A stretch of 21,490 nucleotides of DNA from IMG/VR virus record IMGVR_UViG_2711768030_000006; one strand, given 5' to 3'. Below the pieces are notes generated by a model. That model did no database searches, had not been told where the DNA came from, and was given only the letters and a program-made list of their open reading frames with translations. This stretch comes from a virus (Duplodnaviria > Heunggongvirae > Uroviricota > Caudoviricetes). A program made the translations under genes and the position numbers. This document shows positions 1,419 through 19,365 of this stretch, piece after piece (the stretch's first letter is position 1; every line of letters begins with the position of its first letter).

Positions 1419-2423
1419 TTATTTGATTTCAATTTTGTCCCACTCCCTGCCTCTGTCATCACGATACTGTGATGCCATGGTGTCCGACTTATGCCCGAGA
1501 AGATGTTGAGCAAACTTATCGCTTATCTGCTTCTCATAGAGTCTTGCAGACAAACTGCGCAACTCGTGAAAGGTAGGCGGATCCCCTTCGAAGGAAAGAC
1601 CTGATGCTTTTCGTGCGCGCATAAAATACATCTCTTTGCATTTATCAAGTGTTTCCTTCATTGATATCCCGAGAGCATCAACATGCAATGCTGTTGGGAT
1701 GGCAATTTTTACGCCTGTTTTGCGTTGCTCGACATAAAGATATCCATCTACGATATCAGACCACTTCATTTCGCATAAATCACCAACTCGCTGCCCGGTA
1801 ACAACAGCCAGTTCCATTGCAAGTCTAAGCCAACATGGTGATGATTCTGCTGCTTGATAAATTTTCAGGTATTCGTCAGCCGTAAGTCTTGATCTCCTTA
1901 CCTCTGATTTTGCAGCGCGAGTGGCTGCGACCGGGTTTGTTGTTATATGGCCTTCAGCTATAGCCTCTCGGAATGCATCGCTCAGTGTTGATCTGATTAA
2001 CTTGGCTGATGCCGCCTTGCCCTCGTCTATGTATCCATTGAGCATTGCCGCAATTTCTTTTGTGGTGATGTCTTCAAGTGGAGCATCAGGCAGACCCCTC
2101 CTTATTGCTTTAATTTTGCTCATGTAATTTATGAGTGTCTTCTGCTTGATTCCTCTGCTGGCCAGGATTTTTTCGTAGCGATCAAGCCATGAATGTAACG
2201 TAACGGAATTATCACTGTTGATTCTCGCTGTCAGAGGCTTGTGTTTGTGTCCTGAAAATAACTCAATGTTGGCCTGTATAGCTTCAGTGATTGCGATTCG
2301 CCTGTCTCGGCCTAATCCAAACTCTTTACCCGTCCTTGGGTCCCTGTAGCAGTAATATCCATTGTTTCTTATATAAAGGTTAGGGGGTAAATCCCGGCGC
2401 TCATGACTTCGCCTTCTTCCCAT
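1419..2423 (-). CDS. int: Lambda-type tyrosine integrase, 334 aa (apparent 22-aa internal deletion versus 356-aa lambda Int)
   Basis: N-terminus MGRRRSHERRDLPPNLYIRNNGYYCYRDPRTGKEF and C-terminus LLGHKSDTMASQYRDDRGREWDKIEIK match lambda Int; junction KCKE-M-YFMRARK where lambda is remembered to have KCKE-ILGGETIIASTRREPLSSGTVSR-YFMRARK. Confidence 0.9.
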   Translation of the reverse strand: MGRRRSHERRDLPPNLYIRNNGYYCYRDPRTGKEFGLGRDRRIAITEAIQANIELFSGHKHKPLTARINSDNSVTLHSWLDRYEKILASRGIKQKTLINYMSKIKAIRRGLPDAPLEDITTKEIAAMLNGYIDEGKAASAKLIRSTLSDAFREAIAEGHITTNPVAATRAAKSEVRRSRLTADEYLKIYQAAESSPCWLRLAMELAVVTGQRVGDLCEMKWSDIVDGYLYVEQRKTGVKIAIPTALHVDALGISMKETLDKCKEMYFMRARKASGLSFEGDPPTFHELRSLSARLYEKQISDKFAQHLLGHKSDTMASQYRDDRGREWDKIEIK

Positions 2424-13998: not shown

Positions 13999-14127
13999 CG
14001 CATACAGAAGATTGCCGGTAAAGGGCATGCCAAGCAAGTCGATGCTGCATATGCAAAAGAATGCGCGCTGGAAGGTATGGCGAGAACACAGGTTATCTGG
14101 CTGAAAGAGGGGGTTATTAAGGCGTGA
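13999..14127 (+). pseudogene. Startless ORF fragment (...[37 protein letters not shown]) ending in a GTGA overlap with rusA; possible frameshifted or truncated nin-region gene
   Basis: 43 sense codons with no plausible start codon after the upstream stops at 13990 and 13996; stop TGA 14125-14127 overlaps the rusA GTG; an overlapping 64-aa ORF (13910-14104) in another frame could be its displaced 5' part. Confidence 0.3.
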
Positions 14128-14486
14128 ATACCTACAGCATCACATTACCCTGGCCTCCGAGCAATAATCGCTATTACCGCCATAATCGCGGACGCACGCA
14201 CATCAGCGCAGAGGGGCAGGCATACCGCGATAACGTCGCCCGAATCATTAAAAACGCAATGCTAGATATCGGCCTGGCTATGCCTGTGAAAATCCGCATT
14301 GAGTGCCACATGCCGGATCGCCGTCGCCGTGACCTGGATAATCTGCAAAAAGCCGCTTTTGACGCACTCACTAAAGCAGGTTTCTGGCTGGATGATGCTC
14401 AGGTCGTTGATTACCGCGTTGTGAAGATGCCTGTTACCAAAGGTGGGAGGCTGGAACTGACCATCACCGAAATGGGGAATGAATGA
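14124..14486 (+). CDS. rusA: RusA Holliday-junction resolvase, 120 aa
   Basis: [25 protein letters not shown]...[31 protein letters not shown] matches E. coli/DLP12 RusA; GTG start. Confidence 0.93.
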
Positions 14487-14623
14487 TGTTTGAGTTTAAT
14501 ATGGCAGAACTTCTTCGCCACCGCTGGGGGCGTCTGCGCTTATATCGTTTCCCCGGTTCTGTTTTGACCGATTACCGAATACTGAAGAATTACGCCAAAA
14601 CACTGACAGGAGCAGGAGTATGA
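14483..14623 (+). CDS. ylcG: YlcG-like small protein, 46 aa
   Basis: Hand-translated [46 protein letters not shown]; overlaps the rusA stop; sits between rusA and Q as in DLP12. Confidence 0.6.
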
Positions 14624-14708
14624 AGTCAGAGATAACAATCAACTAATACTGTTTTGTTGATTTTTGCTTGTAATTGGCGTTCTGGTCTGAGTTTTGTGGA
14701 GTAAGTTG

Positions 14709-15086
14709 ATGCGTGATATTCAGATGGTTCTTGAGCGTTGGGGAGCGTGGGCGGCTAATAATCATGAAGATGTGACCTGGTCGTCCATTGCCGCCGGTTT
14801 TAAGGGATTAATTCCTTCAAAAGTAAAATCTCGCCCACAATGTTGTGACGATGACGCGATGATCATTTGCGGGTGCATGGCCCGTCTGAAAAAGAACAAC
14901 AGCGATTTGCATGATTTATTGGTGGACTATTATGTCGGCGGCATGACTTTTATGGCGCTTGCACGTAAGCATGGGCGATCTGATTGTTGGGTTGGCAGGA
15001 TGCTTCAGAAAGCTGAGGGCGTAGTGGAGGGTATGCTGATGGTGTTGGATCTCCGATTGGAGATGGATGCTGATTGTTCGAAATAA
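14709..15086 (+). CDS. Late-gene antiterminator Q, short phage-82/DLP12 QuuD type, 125 aa
   Basis: Cys-rich zinc-binding-like motif ([16 protein letters not shown]); GGAG Shine-Dalgarno 7 nt before ATG; position immediately upstream of a terminator and the late region. Confidence 0.75.
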
Positions 15087-15184
15087 TTAAAGGAAAAGTT
15101 GCTGTCTGATTGTCATTAGTCTAACATTTTAAATGTTGGAATCGCAACGTAGTTATTATCATATAACAGCTTGTTTCCTGATTT
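15087..15184 (+). promoter_or_regulatory. Candidate late promoter pR' and Q-utilisation region
   Basis: AT-rich interval between Q stop and the tR'-like terminator; the hexamers could not be placed reliably. Confidence 0.35.
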
Positions 15185-15213
15185 AGCCAGCCTCCCCAAA
15201 GGCTGGTTTTTTT
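15185..15213 (+). terminator. tR'-like intrinsic terminator
   Basis: Stem ccagcct (15187-15193) / aggctgg (15200-15206) followed by TTTTTTT. Confidence 0.8.
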
Positions 15214-15241
15214 CTAATAAGTATTATTTCGGGTAGGGATT

Positions 15242-15766
15242 TTATTGTTTAACCCATAATAATTCATTGACATTGAATCCCAACTTTTGAGCGGTTCGCA
15301 CATAGTCTGCTTTTACTTTATCTGGAATAGTTGGGGTCCTTGCCAGAATCCATAGGTATTCTCTGTTCGGACCACTGACAAGAGCATACTTATACTCATC
15401 ATCCAGTTTGATTACATTATAGCCACCATAGAAGGGGCCAAAAAACGAAACCTTCAATGCTGCAGTTTTAGTATCTCCAGTAAAGTATGCTTTACCTTCG
15501 CTCTCGCTCCATTTATTTTTCGTTGGATCGTATCCACGGTTAAGTACACGAATCCCTCCGTCGTTCCGTTTTCCATAAGTAGCGCTGACCTGTTCCAGAC
15601 CACGTTCGAACCGGTTCTCGAGGCGAGCTATTTCATACCATTTTCCGAGGTAGCGGTTGGCGTCAAAATTTGTAATCGGCTGCACACCTTTAGGTGGTGT
15701 CGGGGCCTTACATGCTATAAGAGTGAAAGAGAGTGCAATGCCAGTCAACACAGGCCATAACTTCAT
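15242..15766 (-). CDS. Blc-like bacterial lipocalin, outer-membrane lipoprotein, 174 aa
   Basis: Lipoprotein signal with LIAC lipobox; lipocalin motifs NFDANRYLGKWYEIARLENRFERG and FTGDTKTAALKVSFFGPFYGGYNVIKLD closely resemble E. coli Blc; AGGA Shine-Dalgarno. Confidence 0.85.
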   Translation of the reverse strand: MKLWPVLTGIALSFTLIACKAPTPPKGVQPITNFDANRYLGKWYEIARLENRFERGLEQVSATYGKRNDGGIRVLNRGYDPTKNKWSESEGKAYFTGDTKTAALKVSFFGPFYGGYNVIKLDDEYKYALVSGPNREYLWILARTPTIPDKVKADYVRTAQKLGFNVNELLWVKQ

Positions 15767-15958
15767 AATAAATCCTGTACTTTTGATAGTTGAGAGTAAG
15801 TATGAAAGATAGATGATTACGACCGATCACTTAAAGAACTTTCATACTATATTAGGAATAGTCCATAACAGAAAAATTGTCAGTGATGACGCCAGAAAGG
15901 CAATTTATTCCGTGCACTACACAGTTTATGTGTTAATGAATTAGTCAAGGGGGAGAAT

Positions 15959-16918
15959 ATGATAAAAAAACCTGTGATTGGAATCAGCGGTTGTTTGGCC
16001 GGTTCTGCTGTTCGTTTTGATGGTGGTCACAAAAGAGCTGACTTTTTAATGGACAAATTAGTGGAATGGGTAACATTCAGACCAGTATGTCCGGAAATGG
16101 CTATAGGGCTGCCAGTTCCGCGTCCTGCTCTACGTCTTGTGCGCTCGACGCAAGGAAATATACGGATGTGTTTCAGCCACGACCAGAATGAGGATGTGAC
16201 AGAGAGAATGACAGAGTTTAGTCGTTCTTATATGGACAAATTAAAGGATGTATCGGGGTTTGTGGTTTGTGCTAAATCTCCCAGCTGTGGCATGGAGCGC
16301 GTGCGTGTCTATGATGAAAATGGTAATCGAGGTCGTAAAGATGGAGTGGGACTATTTACGAGCACTTTGATGGAAAAGTTTTCCTGGCTACCGGTTGAAG
16401 AGGATGGGCGATTACATGATCCAGTGCTTCGTGAGAATTTTGTTGAAAGAGTTTTTGCTTTGCATGAGCTCAATCACCTTTACAAGGAGAAATTATCAAG
16501 AAGAGAGTTATTAGCTTTTCATAGTCGTTATAAGCTTCAGTTGTTGGCGCATAGTCAGGCAGGCTATAAAGATATGGGACCATTTGTGGCTGCAATACAC
16601 GAGTGGGCGGACCTTGAATCATACTTTGAGGTGTATCGTGATAAGCTGATGGCGATTCTCAGAAAACCTGCATCACGTAAAAATCACACGAATGTGCTGA
16701 TGCATATACAGGGGTATTTTAGTAACTACTTAAGTACACGCCAGCGTAAAGAGTTGAGCGAGGTTATACTTAACTATCGTTCTGGCACATTACCTCTTCT
16801 TGCGCCGTTGACTCTGCTGAAGCATTATCTGGGTGAGTATCCTAATGATTACTTGCTTACACAGAATTACTTCGATCCCTATCCGGACGAACTGGCTCTA
16901 AGACTGATGGTAAATTAA
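15959..16918 (+). CDS. DUF523 (TudS-like, cysteine-rich putative Fe-S) fused to DUF1722 (YbgA-like) protein, 319 aa
   Basis: N-terminal half has Cys spacing GISGCLAG...PVCPE...CAKSPSCG typical of DUF523; C-terminal half resembles YbgA-type DUF1722; GGGGGAG Shine-Dalgarno. Confidence 0.7.
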   Translation: MIKKPVIGISGCLAGSAVRFDGGHKRADFLMDKLVEWVTFRPVCPEMAIGLPVPRPALRLVRSTQGNIRMCFSHDQNEDVTERMTEFSRSYMDKLKDVSGFVVCAKSPSCGMERVRVYDENGNRGRKDGVGLFTSTLMEKFSWLPVEEDGRLHDPVLRENFVERVFALHELNHLYKEKLSRRELLAFHSRYKLQLLAHSQAGYKDMGPFVAAIHEWADLESYFEVYRDKLMAILRKPASRKNHTNVLMHIQGYFSNYLSTRQRKELSEVILNYRSGTLPLLAPLTLLKHYLGEYPNDYLLTQNYFDPYPDELALRLMVN

Positions 16919-17269
16919 TTGTATGCGATATCATCCAAAAGGATGAGTTCCTGCATGCAGGATATTTACAATCGTAAAAACTACACTATGATACCCAGAG
17001 TGTCAGTTTGTATAAAAACTCTGTTTACGCTGAAGAAACAATTGAGATGCAACTTAAAGTTGGTAAACATGCCAGTCAAAATATATAATATTATGATTCC
17101 ACGCAGCTATATATAATATAACGGATTGGTTTAATAATTTGTCTTTGTGAGTTAAATACATAATTTTATACTTGTGATGCAATGAAATTTTCCTTATTGT
17201 TGAACTGGCGAATATTGATTTTCCACCTATACTTACCTGGTGTAACCCCAATGATATCAGGTGGATAAT

Positions 17270-18001
17270 ATGCCATACATATGTTCTATCATTTTGGTGT
17301 TGAACTCGTTTGATGTCCGAATTGGTAAAGAAGATATTTTGTTTAAAAAAGGAAGTGCTGTTCTCATTGATTACAATTTAAAAGATTTTTTTTCATCAAA
17401 TATAGATCATGTAATGATCGTAGATGTTGAAGAGAAAACAGTTAATGATTTCTTTAAAAGCAACACACTCTCACCTTTTTCTGTAAGAAGGTTTTATCCG
17501 GCATACTTGATGGTGGAATGTGAAGATTTTTCATTGTTAAAGAACTTGATTGCATGCTTGAATTGTGATGGCAGAACTGTGGATTTTGTTAGAAATCAAA
17601 TATCACTTGCATGTCTTGCTATCTTATCTTCAGAGAAAATAGTGCAAAGTTTTTTATTTGGATGTCTTAATAGTTTAGGAAGTAAAGTTAAGGCTATTAT
17701 TCACACGGATATATCTGCAGCATGGAGACTTTGTGATATATCTTCAAGACTGTATCTGAGTGAAAGTCTGTTAAAAAGAAAATTAAAGCACGAAGGCTTA
17801 TCATTTAGTAAGTTAATTCTTGAAGAGCGAATGGTGATGGCGGAAAGGTTATTAAGCTACAATTTATATTCTGTTGGAAAAGTTGCTGAGATATGCGGTT
17901 ATGAAAACACGTCATATTTTGTAAGTGTTTTCAGAAGGTATTTTGGTGTTCCTCCCCATCAATATTCATCAAGATTTTTTTTAGAAAAAGACATGATGTA
18001 A
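17270..18001 (+). CDS. AraC/XylS-family transcriptional regulator (AppY/GadX/Rns-like), 243 aa from ATG 17270 (GTG at 17261 also possible)
   Basis: C-terminal double HTH (WRLCDISSRLYLSESLLKRKLKHEGLSFSKLILEERMVMAERLL...VGKVAEICGYENTSYFVSVFRRYFGVPP); AGGTGG Shine-Dalgarno 5 nt upstream; very AT-rich gene and leader. Confidence 0.85.
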   Translation: MPYICSIILVLNSFDVRIGKEDILFKKGSAVLIDYNLKDFFSSNIDHVMIVDVEEKTVNDFFKSNTLSPFSVRRFYPAYLMVECEDFSLLKNLIACLNCDGRTVDFVRNQISLACLAILSSEKIVQSFLFGCLNSLGSKVKAIIHTDISAAWRLCDISSRLYLSESLLKRKLKHEGLSFSKLILEERMVMAERLLSYNLYSVGKVAEICGYENTSYFVSVFRRYFGVPPHQYSSRFFLEKDMM

Positions 18002-18062
18002 CGTGATGCGTTTTAATGATTTTGTAATTTTCGTATTTGATAATTGTATGATGCTTTCAGCT

Positions 18063-18095
18063 ACGCCAGAATAATCGCGGCGTTTTTCTTTTTGA
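18063..18095 (+). terminator. Weak terminator-like hairpin after the AraC-family gene
   Basis: Short stem acgcc / ggcgt followed by TTTTTCTTTTT. Confidence 0.25.
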
Positions 18096-18188
18096 ATAGA
18101 TGTTCAAGCCTTACGCTAATGTAACTTCTATACCTTTCCTCTTCGTTCCGAACCGTGTACACCATCCGTTATTTGCGGAGGTGAGGCT

Positions 18189-18404
18189 ATGAAATCCATG
18201 GATAAGTTAACAACGGGCATTGCCTACGGCACCTCCGCAGGCAGTGCTGGCTACTGGTTTTTACAGCTGCTCGATAAAGTCACGCCCTCACAGTGGGCAG
18301 CAATAGGTGTGCTGGGTAGCTTGGTATTTGGCCTGCTGACGTACCTGACAAACCTTTATTTCAAGATTAAAGAAGATAAGCGCAAGGCTGCGAGAGGTGA
18401 ATAA
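18189..18404 (+). CDS. S: Class II holin of phage-21 type (pinholin S21) with dual start (71-aa antiholin from 18189, 68-aa holin from 18198)
   Basis: [71 protein letters not shown] matches S21; two TM segments; MKSM dual-start motif. Confidence 0.92.
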
Positions 18405-18901
18405 TGCCTCCATCATTACGAAAAGCCGTTGCTGCTGCTATTGGTGGCGGAGCAATTGCTATAGCATCAGTGTTAATCACTGGCCCAAGTGGTAACGATG
18501 GTCTGGAAGGTGTCAGCTACATACCATACAAAGATATCGTTGGCGTATGGACTGTATGTCACGGGCATACAGGAAAAGACATCATTCCCGGTAAAACGTA
18601 TACCGAAGCAGAATGCAAAGCCCTCCTGAATAAAGACCTTGCCACGGTAGCCAGACAAATTAACCCGTACATCAAAGTCGATATACCGGAAACAACGCGC
18701 GGCGCTCTTTACTCGTTCGTCTATAACGTGGGCGCAGGCAATTTCAGAACATCTACTCTTCTTCGCAAAATAAACCAGGGCGATATCAAGGGCGCATGTG
18801 ACCAGCTACGTCGCTGGGCATACGCTGGCGGTAAGCAATGGAAAGGCCTGATGACTCGTCGTGAGATTGAGCGTGAGGTCTGTTTGTGGGGGCAACAATG
18901 A
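18404..18901 (+). CDS. R: SAR endolysin (phage-21 R-type lysozyme with N-terminal signal-anchor-release domain), 165 aa
   Basis: Gly/Ala-rich N-terminal segment [23 protein letters not shown] followed by a lysozyme domain; matches R21. Confidence 0.92.
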
Positions 18902-19365
18902 GCAGGGTAACCGCGATTATCTCCGCTCTGGTTATCTGCATCATCGTCTGCCTGTCATGGGCTGTTAATCATTACCGTGATAATGCAATCGCCTACAAAG
19001 AACAGCGCGATAACAAGGCCAGTGAACTGGAGAAGGCGAACGCCACCATTACTGACATGCAGCAGCGCCAGCGTGATGCTGATGCACTCGATGATAAATA
19101 CACGAAGGAGTTAGCTGATGCGAAAGCTGAAAATGATGCTCTTCGGCGCAAGCTTGATAATGGTGGTCGGGTGCTCGTCAAAGGAAAATGCCCTGTGCCA
19201 TCCTCAGCCGAAACCTCCAGCGCCTCCGGCATGGGCAATGATGCCACCGTCGAACTCTCTCCAGTTGCTGGACGAAACGTTCTCGGTATCCGGGACGGAA
19301 TTATCCGCGACCAAACAGCACTGAGAACGCTTCAGGAATACATCAGGACGCAATGCCTTCGATGA
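18898..19365 (+). CDS. Rz: Rz i-spanin
   Basis: [31 protein letters not shown]... N-terminal TM then coiled-coil; ATGA overlap with R stop. Confidence 0.9.
19118..19324 (+). CDS. Rz1: Rz1 o-spanin lipoprotein, embedded in the +1 frame of Rz
   Basis: [22 protein letters not shown] lipobox followed by proline-rich [11 protein letters not shown]; entirely inside Rz. Confidence 0.8.

Follow-up and report, generated by a model that had tools for sequence, protein, structure and literature searches.

Among the described systems closest to the gene studied here is Blc of Escherichia coli (b4149; solved structures 1QWD, 2ACO, and 3MBT), whose own physiological role is so far loosely defined, and which is thought to face the periplasm and not the cell surface. 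On phages, blc, described as 'a bacterial lipocalin', has been reported as a moron in more than 50% of 19 infant-gut lambdas, with membrane proteins dominating the lambda morons as a whole, and with the origin and the neighbour of the blc moron lying outside the scope of that analysis (Mathieu et al., 2020; PMC6969025). In phage 1H12, the lipocalin gene (gp65, 'Lipocalin Blc') adjoins gp66, whose product is the RudS_vir enzyme tested by Jamontas et al. (2024; PMC11417400). RudS enzymes strip the 4-thiouridine modification from tRNA, with the tRNA desulfidation activity of RudS_vir being below that of the others, and their genes are found in light-responsive operons under MerR/LitR regulators; those of Enterobacter and Salmonella adjoin a MerR gene. 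According to the same authors, E. coli is without RudS, while the lipocalin beside RudS goes unmentioned in their work (PMC11417400). Up to now, the lipocalin and RudS have been discussed in isolation from each other. Further afield, the ChrR/sigma-E-controlled cfa operon of Stenotrophomonas maltophilia ends in a lipocalin gene, which is up 165-fold in a chrR mutant (PMC11832516).

Here, we analyzed a window of 21,490 nucleotides, which represents the left and central parts of a lambda-like prophage integrated beside ybhC. The gene order in the window runs int, xis, exo-bet-gam, N, cI-like, cII, O, P, nin region, RusA, YlcG, and Q, to the right of which lie a cargo block, the lysis genes, and nohD. 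Situated within the cargo block at 15242–15766 on the minus strand is an intact lipocalin lipoprotein gene, and its location in a prophage, as had been proposed in a preliminary description of this DNA, is borne out by this lambdoid setting next to ybhC. The open reading frame begins with ATG, has zero internal stops, and encodes 174 residues (RefSeq WP_000780581.1, 'lipocalin family protein'). Membership in the Blc family is established by full-length matches to family models above their curated cutoffs. Specifically, residues 35–174 match Pfam PF08212 (Lipocalin_2; 7e-44, with 149.7 bits where the cutoff is 24), and NCBIfam PRK10477 ('outer membrane lipoprotein Blc') is matched with 316.1 bits (curated cutoff 267) over positions 1–174 of the 176 in the profile. 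By direct reading of the sequence, codons 1–18 give the signal peptide MKLWPVLTGIALSFT-LIA, which is followed by C19-K20, such that the LIAC lipobox (15710–15721 in plus-strand coordinates) provides Cys19 as the predicted lipidation site and the +2 residue is Lys, a non-Asp residue. The lipobox motif is kept in all relatives of the phage lipocalin, and the G-x-W motif reads GKW at residues 41–43. The Blc-like lipoprotein with a LIAC lipobox that was first claimed for this locus is thus confirmed by the model matches and the sequence reading alike.

As for solved structures, the closest to the phage lipocalin are those of E. coli Blc (3mbt, 1qwd, and 2aco; E ~1e-68, identity of at least 60%), with the alignment between the mature region and 3mbt being nearly gap-free (E = 3.5e-69). 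Over the proteins as a whole, identity to Blc is 60% and the alignment contains no gaps. The two proteins belong to the same Pfam and NCBIfam families, are of near-equal length, and have in common the lipobox cysteine, the PTPP linker, the G-x-W motif, and the FFGPFYGGYNV core. In contrast, the phage lipocalin belongs to another lineage and locus, is phage-borne, and has a gene GC content of 0.44 versus 0.53 for blc, and the promoter regions of the phage gene and the ampC-linked blc show no relationship.

That the lipocalin is already a known, annotated, and widespread phage cargo gene is plain from its RefSeq annotation ('lipocalin family protein' or 'outer membrane lipoprotein Blc', depending on the copy), its PHROGs family (phrog_2809), and the published blc moron. 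Plaque-forming phages with the gene include IdasGreatGrand and eleven Lambda_*/1H12 records, the latter being annotated 'Lipocalin Blc'. In effect, the infant-gut lambda moron (1H12 gp65, Lambda_2E9) is the same gene, with the same Q-lipocalin-RudS-AraC-holin order, although the window carries a different allele and does so in a ybhC prophage. This allele differs from that of Lambda_2E9 at 25 nucleotides and 5 amino acids (97% amino-acid identity; dN/dS 0.065). Among complete E. coli genomes, counting matches of at least 95% DNA identity over at least 80% of the gene, the lipocalin was present in approximately 1045 of 5426 (~19%). The complete Q-to-AraC block was found in 958 genomes, and the segment at 15069–15241 in 1113, which is about the number that carry the lipocalin. 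Since 5425 of the 5426 genomes also have a chromosomal blc, the phage gene does supply the cell with a second lipocalin, in keeping with what had been suggested for it.

Selection on the gene is readily apparent. All 80 lipocalin copies in the IMG/VR viral contigs are intact, and together they comprise 21 nucleotide alleles and 12 protein variants. Among the polymorphic codons in these 80 contigs, 28 show synonymous changes only and 15 show replacements, and the median pairwise dN/dS is 0.14. With dN/dS values of 0.07–0.14, the lipocalin is under strong purifying selection in its phage setting, and together with the 80 intact copies this rules out a pseudogene or chance open reading frame. Moreover, IS elements disrupt RudS or replace AraC in some genomes, and the lipocalin there is still intact. 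In one strain, an IS3 element lies in RudS beside an intact lipocalin, which means that the two genes need not work together. Roughly one in five E. coli genomes therefore has a second lipocalin that is strongly conserved by selection, and because of this it is probably useful to lysogens.

To place the phage lipocalin among its relatives, we compared it with chromosomal homologs, and two lineages became apparent. Against the expectation in the preliminary description of a protein close to chromosomal Blc, alignment gave just 60% identity with the K-12 protein. The closest non-phage relatives share 74–82% identity and come from Enterobacter, Leclercia, Huaxiibacter, Buttiauxella, Raoultella, Scandinavium, and metagenomes. 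Where the context could be read, these homologs have MerR and/or RudS next door, with MerR beside nearly all of them. In the typical chromosomal layout, the lipocalin gene is divergent from a gene for a MlrA/CarH/LitR-like MerR regulator, whose operon runs into a TudS-DUF1722 gene (RudS; 70–73% identical to the phage RudS), often with a transthyretin-like gene in between. In Scandinavium, the lipocalin and RudS genes lie at opposite ends of a cluster, between which are genes for SnoaL, SDR, amine oxidase, DUF1365, CFA-synthase, DUF2878, and DUF3833 proteins. By comparison, the relatives with 57–61% identity are all in frd-(ampC)-blc-gdx-ecn synteny where the context is readable, with three loci being without marker genes.

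In a neighbor-joining tree, the two lineages are separate and the phage copies are nested inside the MerR/RudS-linked clade. Here, 63 positions are invariant across both lineages, and the fixed differences between them number three. Buttiauxella izardii has one lipocalin gene of each lineage. The phage lipocalin showed neither the frd-(ampC)-blc-gdx synteny nor placement in the corresponding clade, and given its 60% identity, other clade, and other synteny, we ruled out that it is a duplicate of the host blc. From these sequence comparisons, the phage gene is assigned to a second enterobacterial lineage and was not copied from E. coli blc. The detail that our analysis adds to the known moron is that the lipocalin, probably along with its RudS neighbor, comes from a lineage other than that of E. 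coli blc. Another mobilized lipocalin gene is the plasmid blc beside blaCMY-2, on an ampC-blc-sugE fragment from Citrobacter freundii, which we found at 364 plasmid places with 67–74% DNA identity. We take this plasmid blc to be of the ampC-linked lineage, often truncated, passively carried with the resistance gene, and not known to be carried on phages.

Immediately to the right of the lipocalin gene is the gene for RudS (15959–16918, plus strand), a TudS desulfidase fused to DUF1722 (319 residues; Pfam 2-thiour_desulf and DUF1722). It is 93.4% identical to 1H12 gp66 and keeps Cys12, Cys44, and Cys110. The lipocalin and RudS genes are separated by a 192-bp gap and are divergent, in the order seen on the chromosomes. 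Within this gap, 15767–15870 (minus strand) represents the native upstream region of the lipocalin gene, as indicated by its homology to the region between merR and the lipocalin gene in chromosomes. In fact, ~100 bp upstream of the lipocalin ATG aligns with five chromosomal loci, with the homology ending at the position of merR. The conserved blocks in the phage are CTAATATAGTATGAA (~15840–15860) and CATACTT (~15798–15804), and the corresponding sequences in the chromosomes versus the phage are CAATATACTACGAA versus TAATATAGTATGAA and CTACACTT versus TCATACTT. A −10-like block (CATACT or CTACACT) is conserved; no promoter passed in a sigma-70 scan. The RudS-proximal half of the intergenic region aligned weakly with the upstream regions of chromosomal RudS genes, and we discarded this homology as evidence for being too weak. 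Beyond the lipocalin stop codon, no sequence shared with the chromosomal loci was found on the 3′ side.

When set against the MerR-TTR-RudS and lipocalin loci of Enterobacter, Leclercia, Buttiauxella, and Scandinavium, the phage locus thus has the divergent order and promoter-proximal blocks in common. However, it is without the MerR and transthyretin-like genes, its lipocalin and RudS genes are just 192 bp apart, it has an added AraC-like regulator, and its GC content is much lower. The lipocalin is therefore linked to RudS, as at a MerR/LitR stress locus, but has no adjacent MerR, this gene being found neither in the window nor in any of the 80 viral contigs. The simplest and most likely reading of this arrangement is that lipocalin and RudS were captured together and MerR was then lost. 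The basis for co-capture is synteny, as the donor has yet to be sampled: comparisons with every chromosomal homolog show saturation at synonymous sites, the GC content is mismatched (0.44 for the phage lipocalin versus 0.51–0.60 for the chromosomal genes), and our search found no donor closer than the non-phage relatives with 82% identity.

Together with RudS and an AraC-like regulator, the lipocalin makes up a three-gene cargo module. This module, at 15069–18177, is swapped relative to DLP12 of K-12, where homology to the window is limited to 14038–15068 and 18178–19145, and it takes in the last codons of Q, a hairpin-bearing intergenic region, and the three genes. It moves as one block, always with the 3′ end of Q. 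As befits a moron, DLP12 has both flanks without 15069–18177, the slot there being filled by nmpC, and the lipocalin gene and its flanks have an atypical base composition. Specifically, GC is 0.32–0.44 in the module versus 0.50 in the lysis genes and 0.48 in Q, and the intergenic regions that flank the lipocalin gene (0.44) have values of 0.32–0.35. The Q-family late antiterminator is encoded at 14694–15086 on the plus strand (Pfam Phage_antitermQ 2.5e-51; PHROG 79; RefSeq WP_001204777.1), with the RefSeq start at 14709 giving 125 residues, and has the phage 21 Q structures 6p18 and 6jnx as distant relatives. At 17261–18001, also on the plus strand, is the gene for the AraC-family regulator (RefSeq start 17270), which is YdeO/GadX-like and matches Pfam HTH_18 and HTH_AraC as well as PHROG 1450. 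Its best NCBIfam match is YdeO, with 127 bits falling under the cutoff of 348, and its GC content of 0.32 is the lowest in the cassette. The module is followed by the lysis cassette (18189–19365, plus strand), in which the EssD holin, RrrD lysozyme, and Rz were assigned from the RefSeq annotation of 99.9–100% identical prophages and from homology to essD-rrrD-rzpD of DLP12.

With respect to function, the reading that we favor, and hold with somewhat better than even confidence, is that this is lysogenic-conversion cargo, a moron that encodes a Blc-family lipocalin for envelope lipid handling. By this reading, the signal peptide with its LIAC lipobox should direct lipidation at Cys19, and the Lys at +2 should let the Lol pathway deliver the protein to the outer membrane, at its inner leaflet. 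Fatty-acyl or lysophospholipid-type ligands would be bound there by the eight-stranded calyx, as they are by that of E. coli Blc, and the protein would thereby aid envelope lipid housekeeping in the lysogen. Lysogen-expressed envelope lipid handling is the most likely role, possibly within a light or oxidative-stress module that the phage has captured. The envelope or stress role and any RpoS dependence, both raised by the preliminary description, are likewise inferences. The link to RudS, through the MerR/RudS lineage, also brings in an experimentally tested tRNA 4-thiouridine desulfidase, and it suggests UVA or blue-light tolerance, oxidized-lipid stress, and outer membrane integrity as phenotypes. 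With MerR gone, the lipocalin-RudS pair would now be expressed independently of that regulator, and it would give E. coli a second lipocalin plus a RudS activity that it otherwise lacks (PMC11417400).

A more far-reaching but distinctly more tentative interpretation is that the lipocalin and RudS form a portable defense module against near-UV, blue-light, and photo-oxidative damage, which after the loss of MerR is either constitutive or AraC-controlled. The lipocalin would scavenge photo-oxidized or lyso-lipids and RudS would remove photosensitive s4U, which would improve the survival of lysogens in sunlight outside the gut. As a secondary hypothesis, such a light or photo-oxidative-stress context is reasonable, drawing only on neighborhood and analogy. 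The chromosomal relatives of the lipocalin adjoin a MlrA/CarH-like MerR, the Scandinavium genes for CFA-synthase, DUF1365, amine oxidase, and SDR sit between the lipocalin and RudS, and MerR is missing from all of the 80 phage copies. Likewise, RudS occurs in LitR-type light-responsive operons and is lacking in E. coli (PMC11417400), and the S. maltophilia lipocalin lies within the ChrR/sigma-E cfa operon (PMC11832516). On the other hand, the enterobacterial MerR would be tied to light only through its gene neighborhood, our literature search found nothing linking the phage lipocalin to light, MerR, or RudS, RudS_vir is less active in tRNA desulfidation than other RudS enzymes (PMC11417400), and the lipocalin persists where RudS is broken. 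Rather unlikely, in our estimate, is the corresponding evolutionary account, namely that lambdoid coliphages took both outer genes of an enterobacterial locus for light or photo-oxidative stress, lipocalin and RudS, and dropped its MerR/LitR-like repressor, leaving a deregulated light-stress module. Were the light-protective interpretation true, about one-fifth of E. coli strains would have gained, by lysogeny, a deregulated protection against sunlight and oxidized lipids that is otherwise missing from E. coli.

We also considered whether the lipoprotein serves the phage, acting in surface exclusion or receptor masking in the manner of Cor, Llp, and Bor/Iss-type lipoproteins, but find this very improbable. 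It is true that the product is a prophage-encoded, predicted outer membrane lipoprotein that would be expressed, if at all, from the prophage state, that sieB is carried in the same prophage genome and bor/iss in relatives, and that membrane proteins prevail among lambda morons (PMC6969025). However, the protein is a lipocalin of the housekeeping type, with 63 positions invariant with chromosomal Blc, and its nearest relatives are chromosomal and outside any prophage. Moreover, a periplasm-facing position, as is thought for Blc, does not suit such a function. A PADLOC search with the lipocalin, RudS, and the AraC-like regulator gave zero matches to defense families, from which we also rejected the lipocalin as an anti-phage defense gene. 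We give similarly little credence to the notion that the lipocalin is a neutral hitch-hiker, linked to the Q-lysis region, RudS, or AraC. The constant movement of the module as a block with the 3′ end of Q would suit such a passenger, as would the fact that a phenotype for this lipocalin is unreported. Yet, the strong purifying selection speaks against it, as does the observation that none of the 80 viral-contig lipocalins is disrupted when IS elements have entered RudS or AraC elsewhere. Thus, a lipocalin that handles envelope lipids for the lysogen continues to be the interpretation that we prefer.

Outer membrane cargo is a known element of lambdoid late regions. In DLP12, the antisense outer membrane gene nmpC fills this very Q-S slot, behind a Q-proximal region that is rich in hairpins, while bor/iss are antisense after Rz, and lc of PA-2 is grouped with nmpC. 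As proteins, however, these are unrelated to the phage lipocalin, NmpC being a porin and Bor a small lipoprotein. In the window, the lipocalin gene is on the opposite strand to Q and the lysis genes, and with nmpC in the DLP12 slot and bor/iss after Rz, this antisense placement is the standard lambdoid arrangement.

Between Q and the lipocalin gene, a terminator scan revealed a terminator-like hairpin at 15185–15215 on the plus strand, comprising a 9-bp stem and then U7. Its RNA fold has an energy of −14.9 kcal/mol (z = −3.94), and none of 200 shuffled sequences folds as well. When read on the minus strand, the hairpin is without a U tract (z = −0.17), and no canonical terminator was found on the strand of the lipocalin gene itself. 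The hairpin ends 27 nt from the lipocalin stop codon. It is kept in Lambda_2E9, but is absent downstream of the chromosomal lipocalin homologs. The preliminary description had the gene directly beyond the late terminator on the opposite strand. Here, the convergent orientation and the position just past a rightward terminator-like hairpin both stand, whereas the late terminator itself is best regarded as a candidate tR′.

As to promoters, nothing sigma-70-like reached the scan threshold upstream of the lipocalin gene on the minus strand. The interval from Q to the hairpin holds a single sigma-70-like match of at least 9/12, TGGAGA-18-AATAAT (15058–15087), which overlaps the Q stop codon, with a by-eye match, TTGCTG-17-TAACAT (15099–15127), being weaker. 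The Q of DLP12 is ~95% identical in DNA until the homology break, beyond which the downstream region is unrelated save for the 9-mer ATATAACAG. The scan of the Q-to-hairpin interval and this comparison with DLP12 gave no assignment of pR′ or of a Q-binding site.

In the lysogen, the rightward hairpin with its U7 tract would shield the lipocalin gene from rightward phage transcription. Upon induction, Q-modified polymerase should read antisense through the gene toward the lysis genes; that it crosses 15242–15766 follows from DLP12 homology resuming only 11 nt ahead of the holin start, too short a stretch to accommodate a conserved late promoter. A collision of Q-dependent late transcription with the lipocalin gene, as had been predicted, is therefore plausible, though as an ordinary lambdoid arrangement it is nothing special. 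In all 80 of the IMG/VR viral contigs, the lipocalin gene runs counter to Q, RudS, AraC, S, and R.

Beside the lipocalin gene (15242-15766, minus strand) in the cargo cassette, RudS (15959-16918, plus strand) is a full TudS+DUF1722 fusion and shares 93.4% identity with gp66 of phage 1H12 (RudS_vir), which carries the same cargo arrangement, though its RefSeq name is only 'YbgA family protein'. For RudS_vir, the de-modification of 4-thiouridine in tRNA has been demonstrated, and E. coli, according to the same study, is without this 4-thiouridine-removing activity (PMC11417400).

Outside prophages, we found that a conserved chromosomal locus consists of a lipocalin gene divergent from a MerR-type regulator (MlrA/CarH-like), which is followed by a transthyretin-like gene and next by RudS (loci L012 2578-5522, L006-L015 and L085-L090). 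This gene order is common to Enterobacter, Leclercia, Buttiauxella, Raoultella, and Scandinavium, with the Scandinavium version having a CFA-synthase/DUF1365/amine-oxidase/SDR cluster as an insert. Upstream of the chromosomal RudS lies a dyad, TTGGACA-N12-TGTGTAA, which, judged by its sequence, resembles the TGTACA boxes of MlrA/LitR. In the cassette, an AraC-family regulator (17261-18001, plus strand) might substitute for MerR in control. Its NCBIfam ranking places YdeO first, far under the cutoff, followed by GadX and HilD, and its putative relation to the O157:H7 prophage regulators PatE, PsrA, and PsrB is one of general class. With a GC content of 0.32, this gene is the cassette minimum, and it is also the fastest-evolving one there, as shown by 82.5% amino-acid identity and a dN/dS of 0.27 against its counterpart in Lambda_2E9, another phage with this arrangement.

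The Q-S slot, between Q and the holin, is a repeatedly used site for antisense outer-membrane cargo. The porin gene nmpC, likewise antisense and lying behind a hairpin-rich region, fills exactly the same position in the K-12 prophage DLP12 (L091 1840-4326, compared with 15069-18177 in the window). Past the Q stop codon and ahead of the rightward terminator-like hairpin, there is a 9-bp inverted repeat, TCTAACATT-TTA-AATGTTGGA (15120-15140, plus strand), that may serve in regulation or be related to Q; a late promoter and a Q-binding site were sought between Q and this hairpin, and neither was assigned.

Maintenance differs among the three cargo genes. Insertion sequences have struck two of them in some E. 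coli genomes, where an IS3-family element splits RudS or IS1 stands in place of the AraC-like gene, with the lipocalin gene being intact in both situations (loci L094 5718-8013 and L095 6337-7034). As for the prophage itself, its lambda-type integrase (1419-2423, minus strand) has a 66-bp (22-aa) in-frame deletion, EILGGETIIASTRREPLSSGTVSR, relative to prophages that are otherwise 99.9% identical. The deletion falls in the C-terminal part, which we take to be the catalytic domain, and this prophage copy may be incapable of excision.

The Q-lipocalin-RudS segment also appears at 99-100% identity in JARKOR010000135.1, a contig of 2.1 kb that was assigned to 'Candidatus Nanosynbacter sp.'; this contig almost certainly stems from an E. 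coli prophage and was placed in the wrong bin. In E. coli plasmids, a lipocalin fragment occurs at 364 places with 67-74% DNA identity to the window gene; this is the Citrobacter-type blc travelling with blaCMY-2, a lipocalin gene that was mobilised independently of the phage-borne one and is unconnected with it in this respect.
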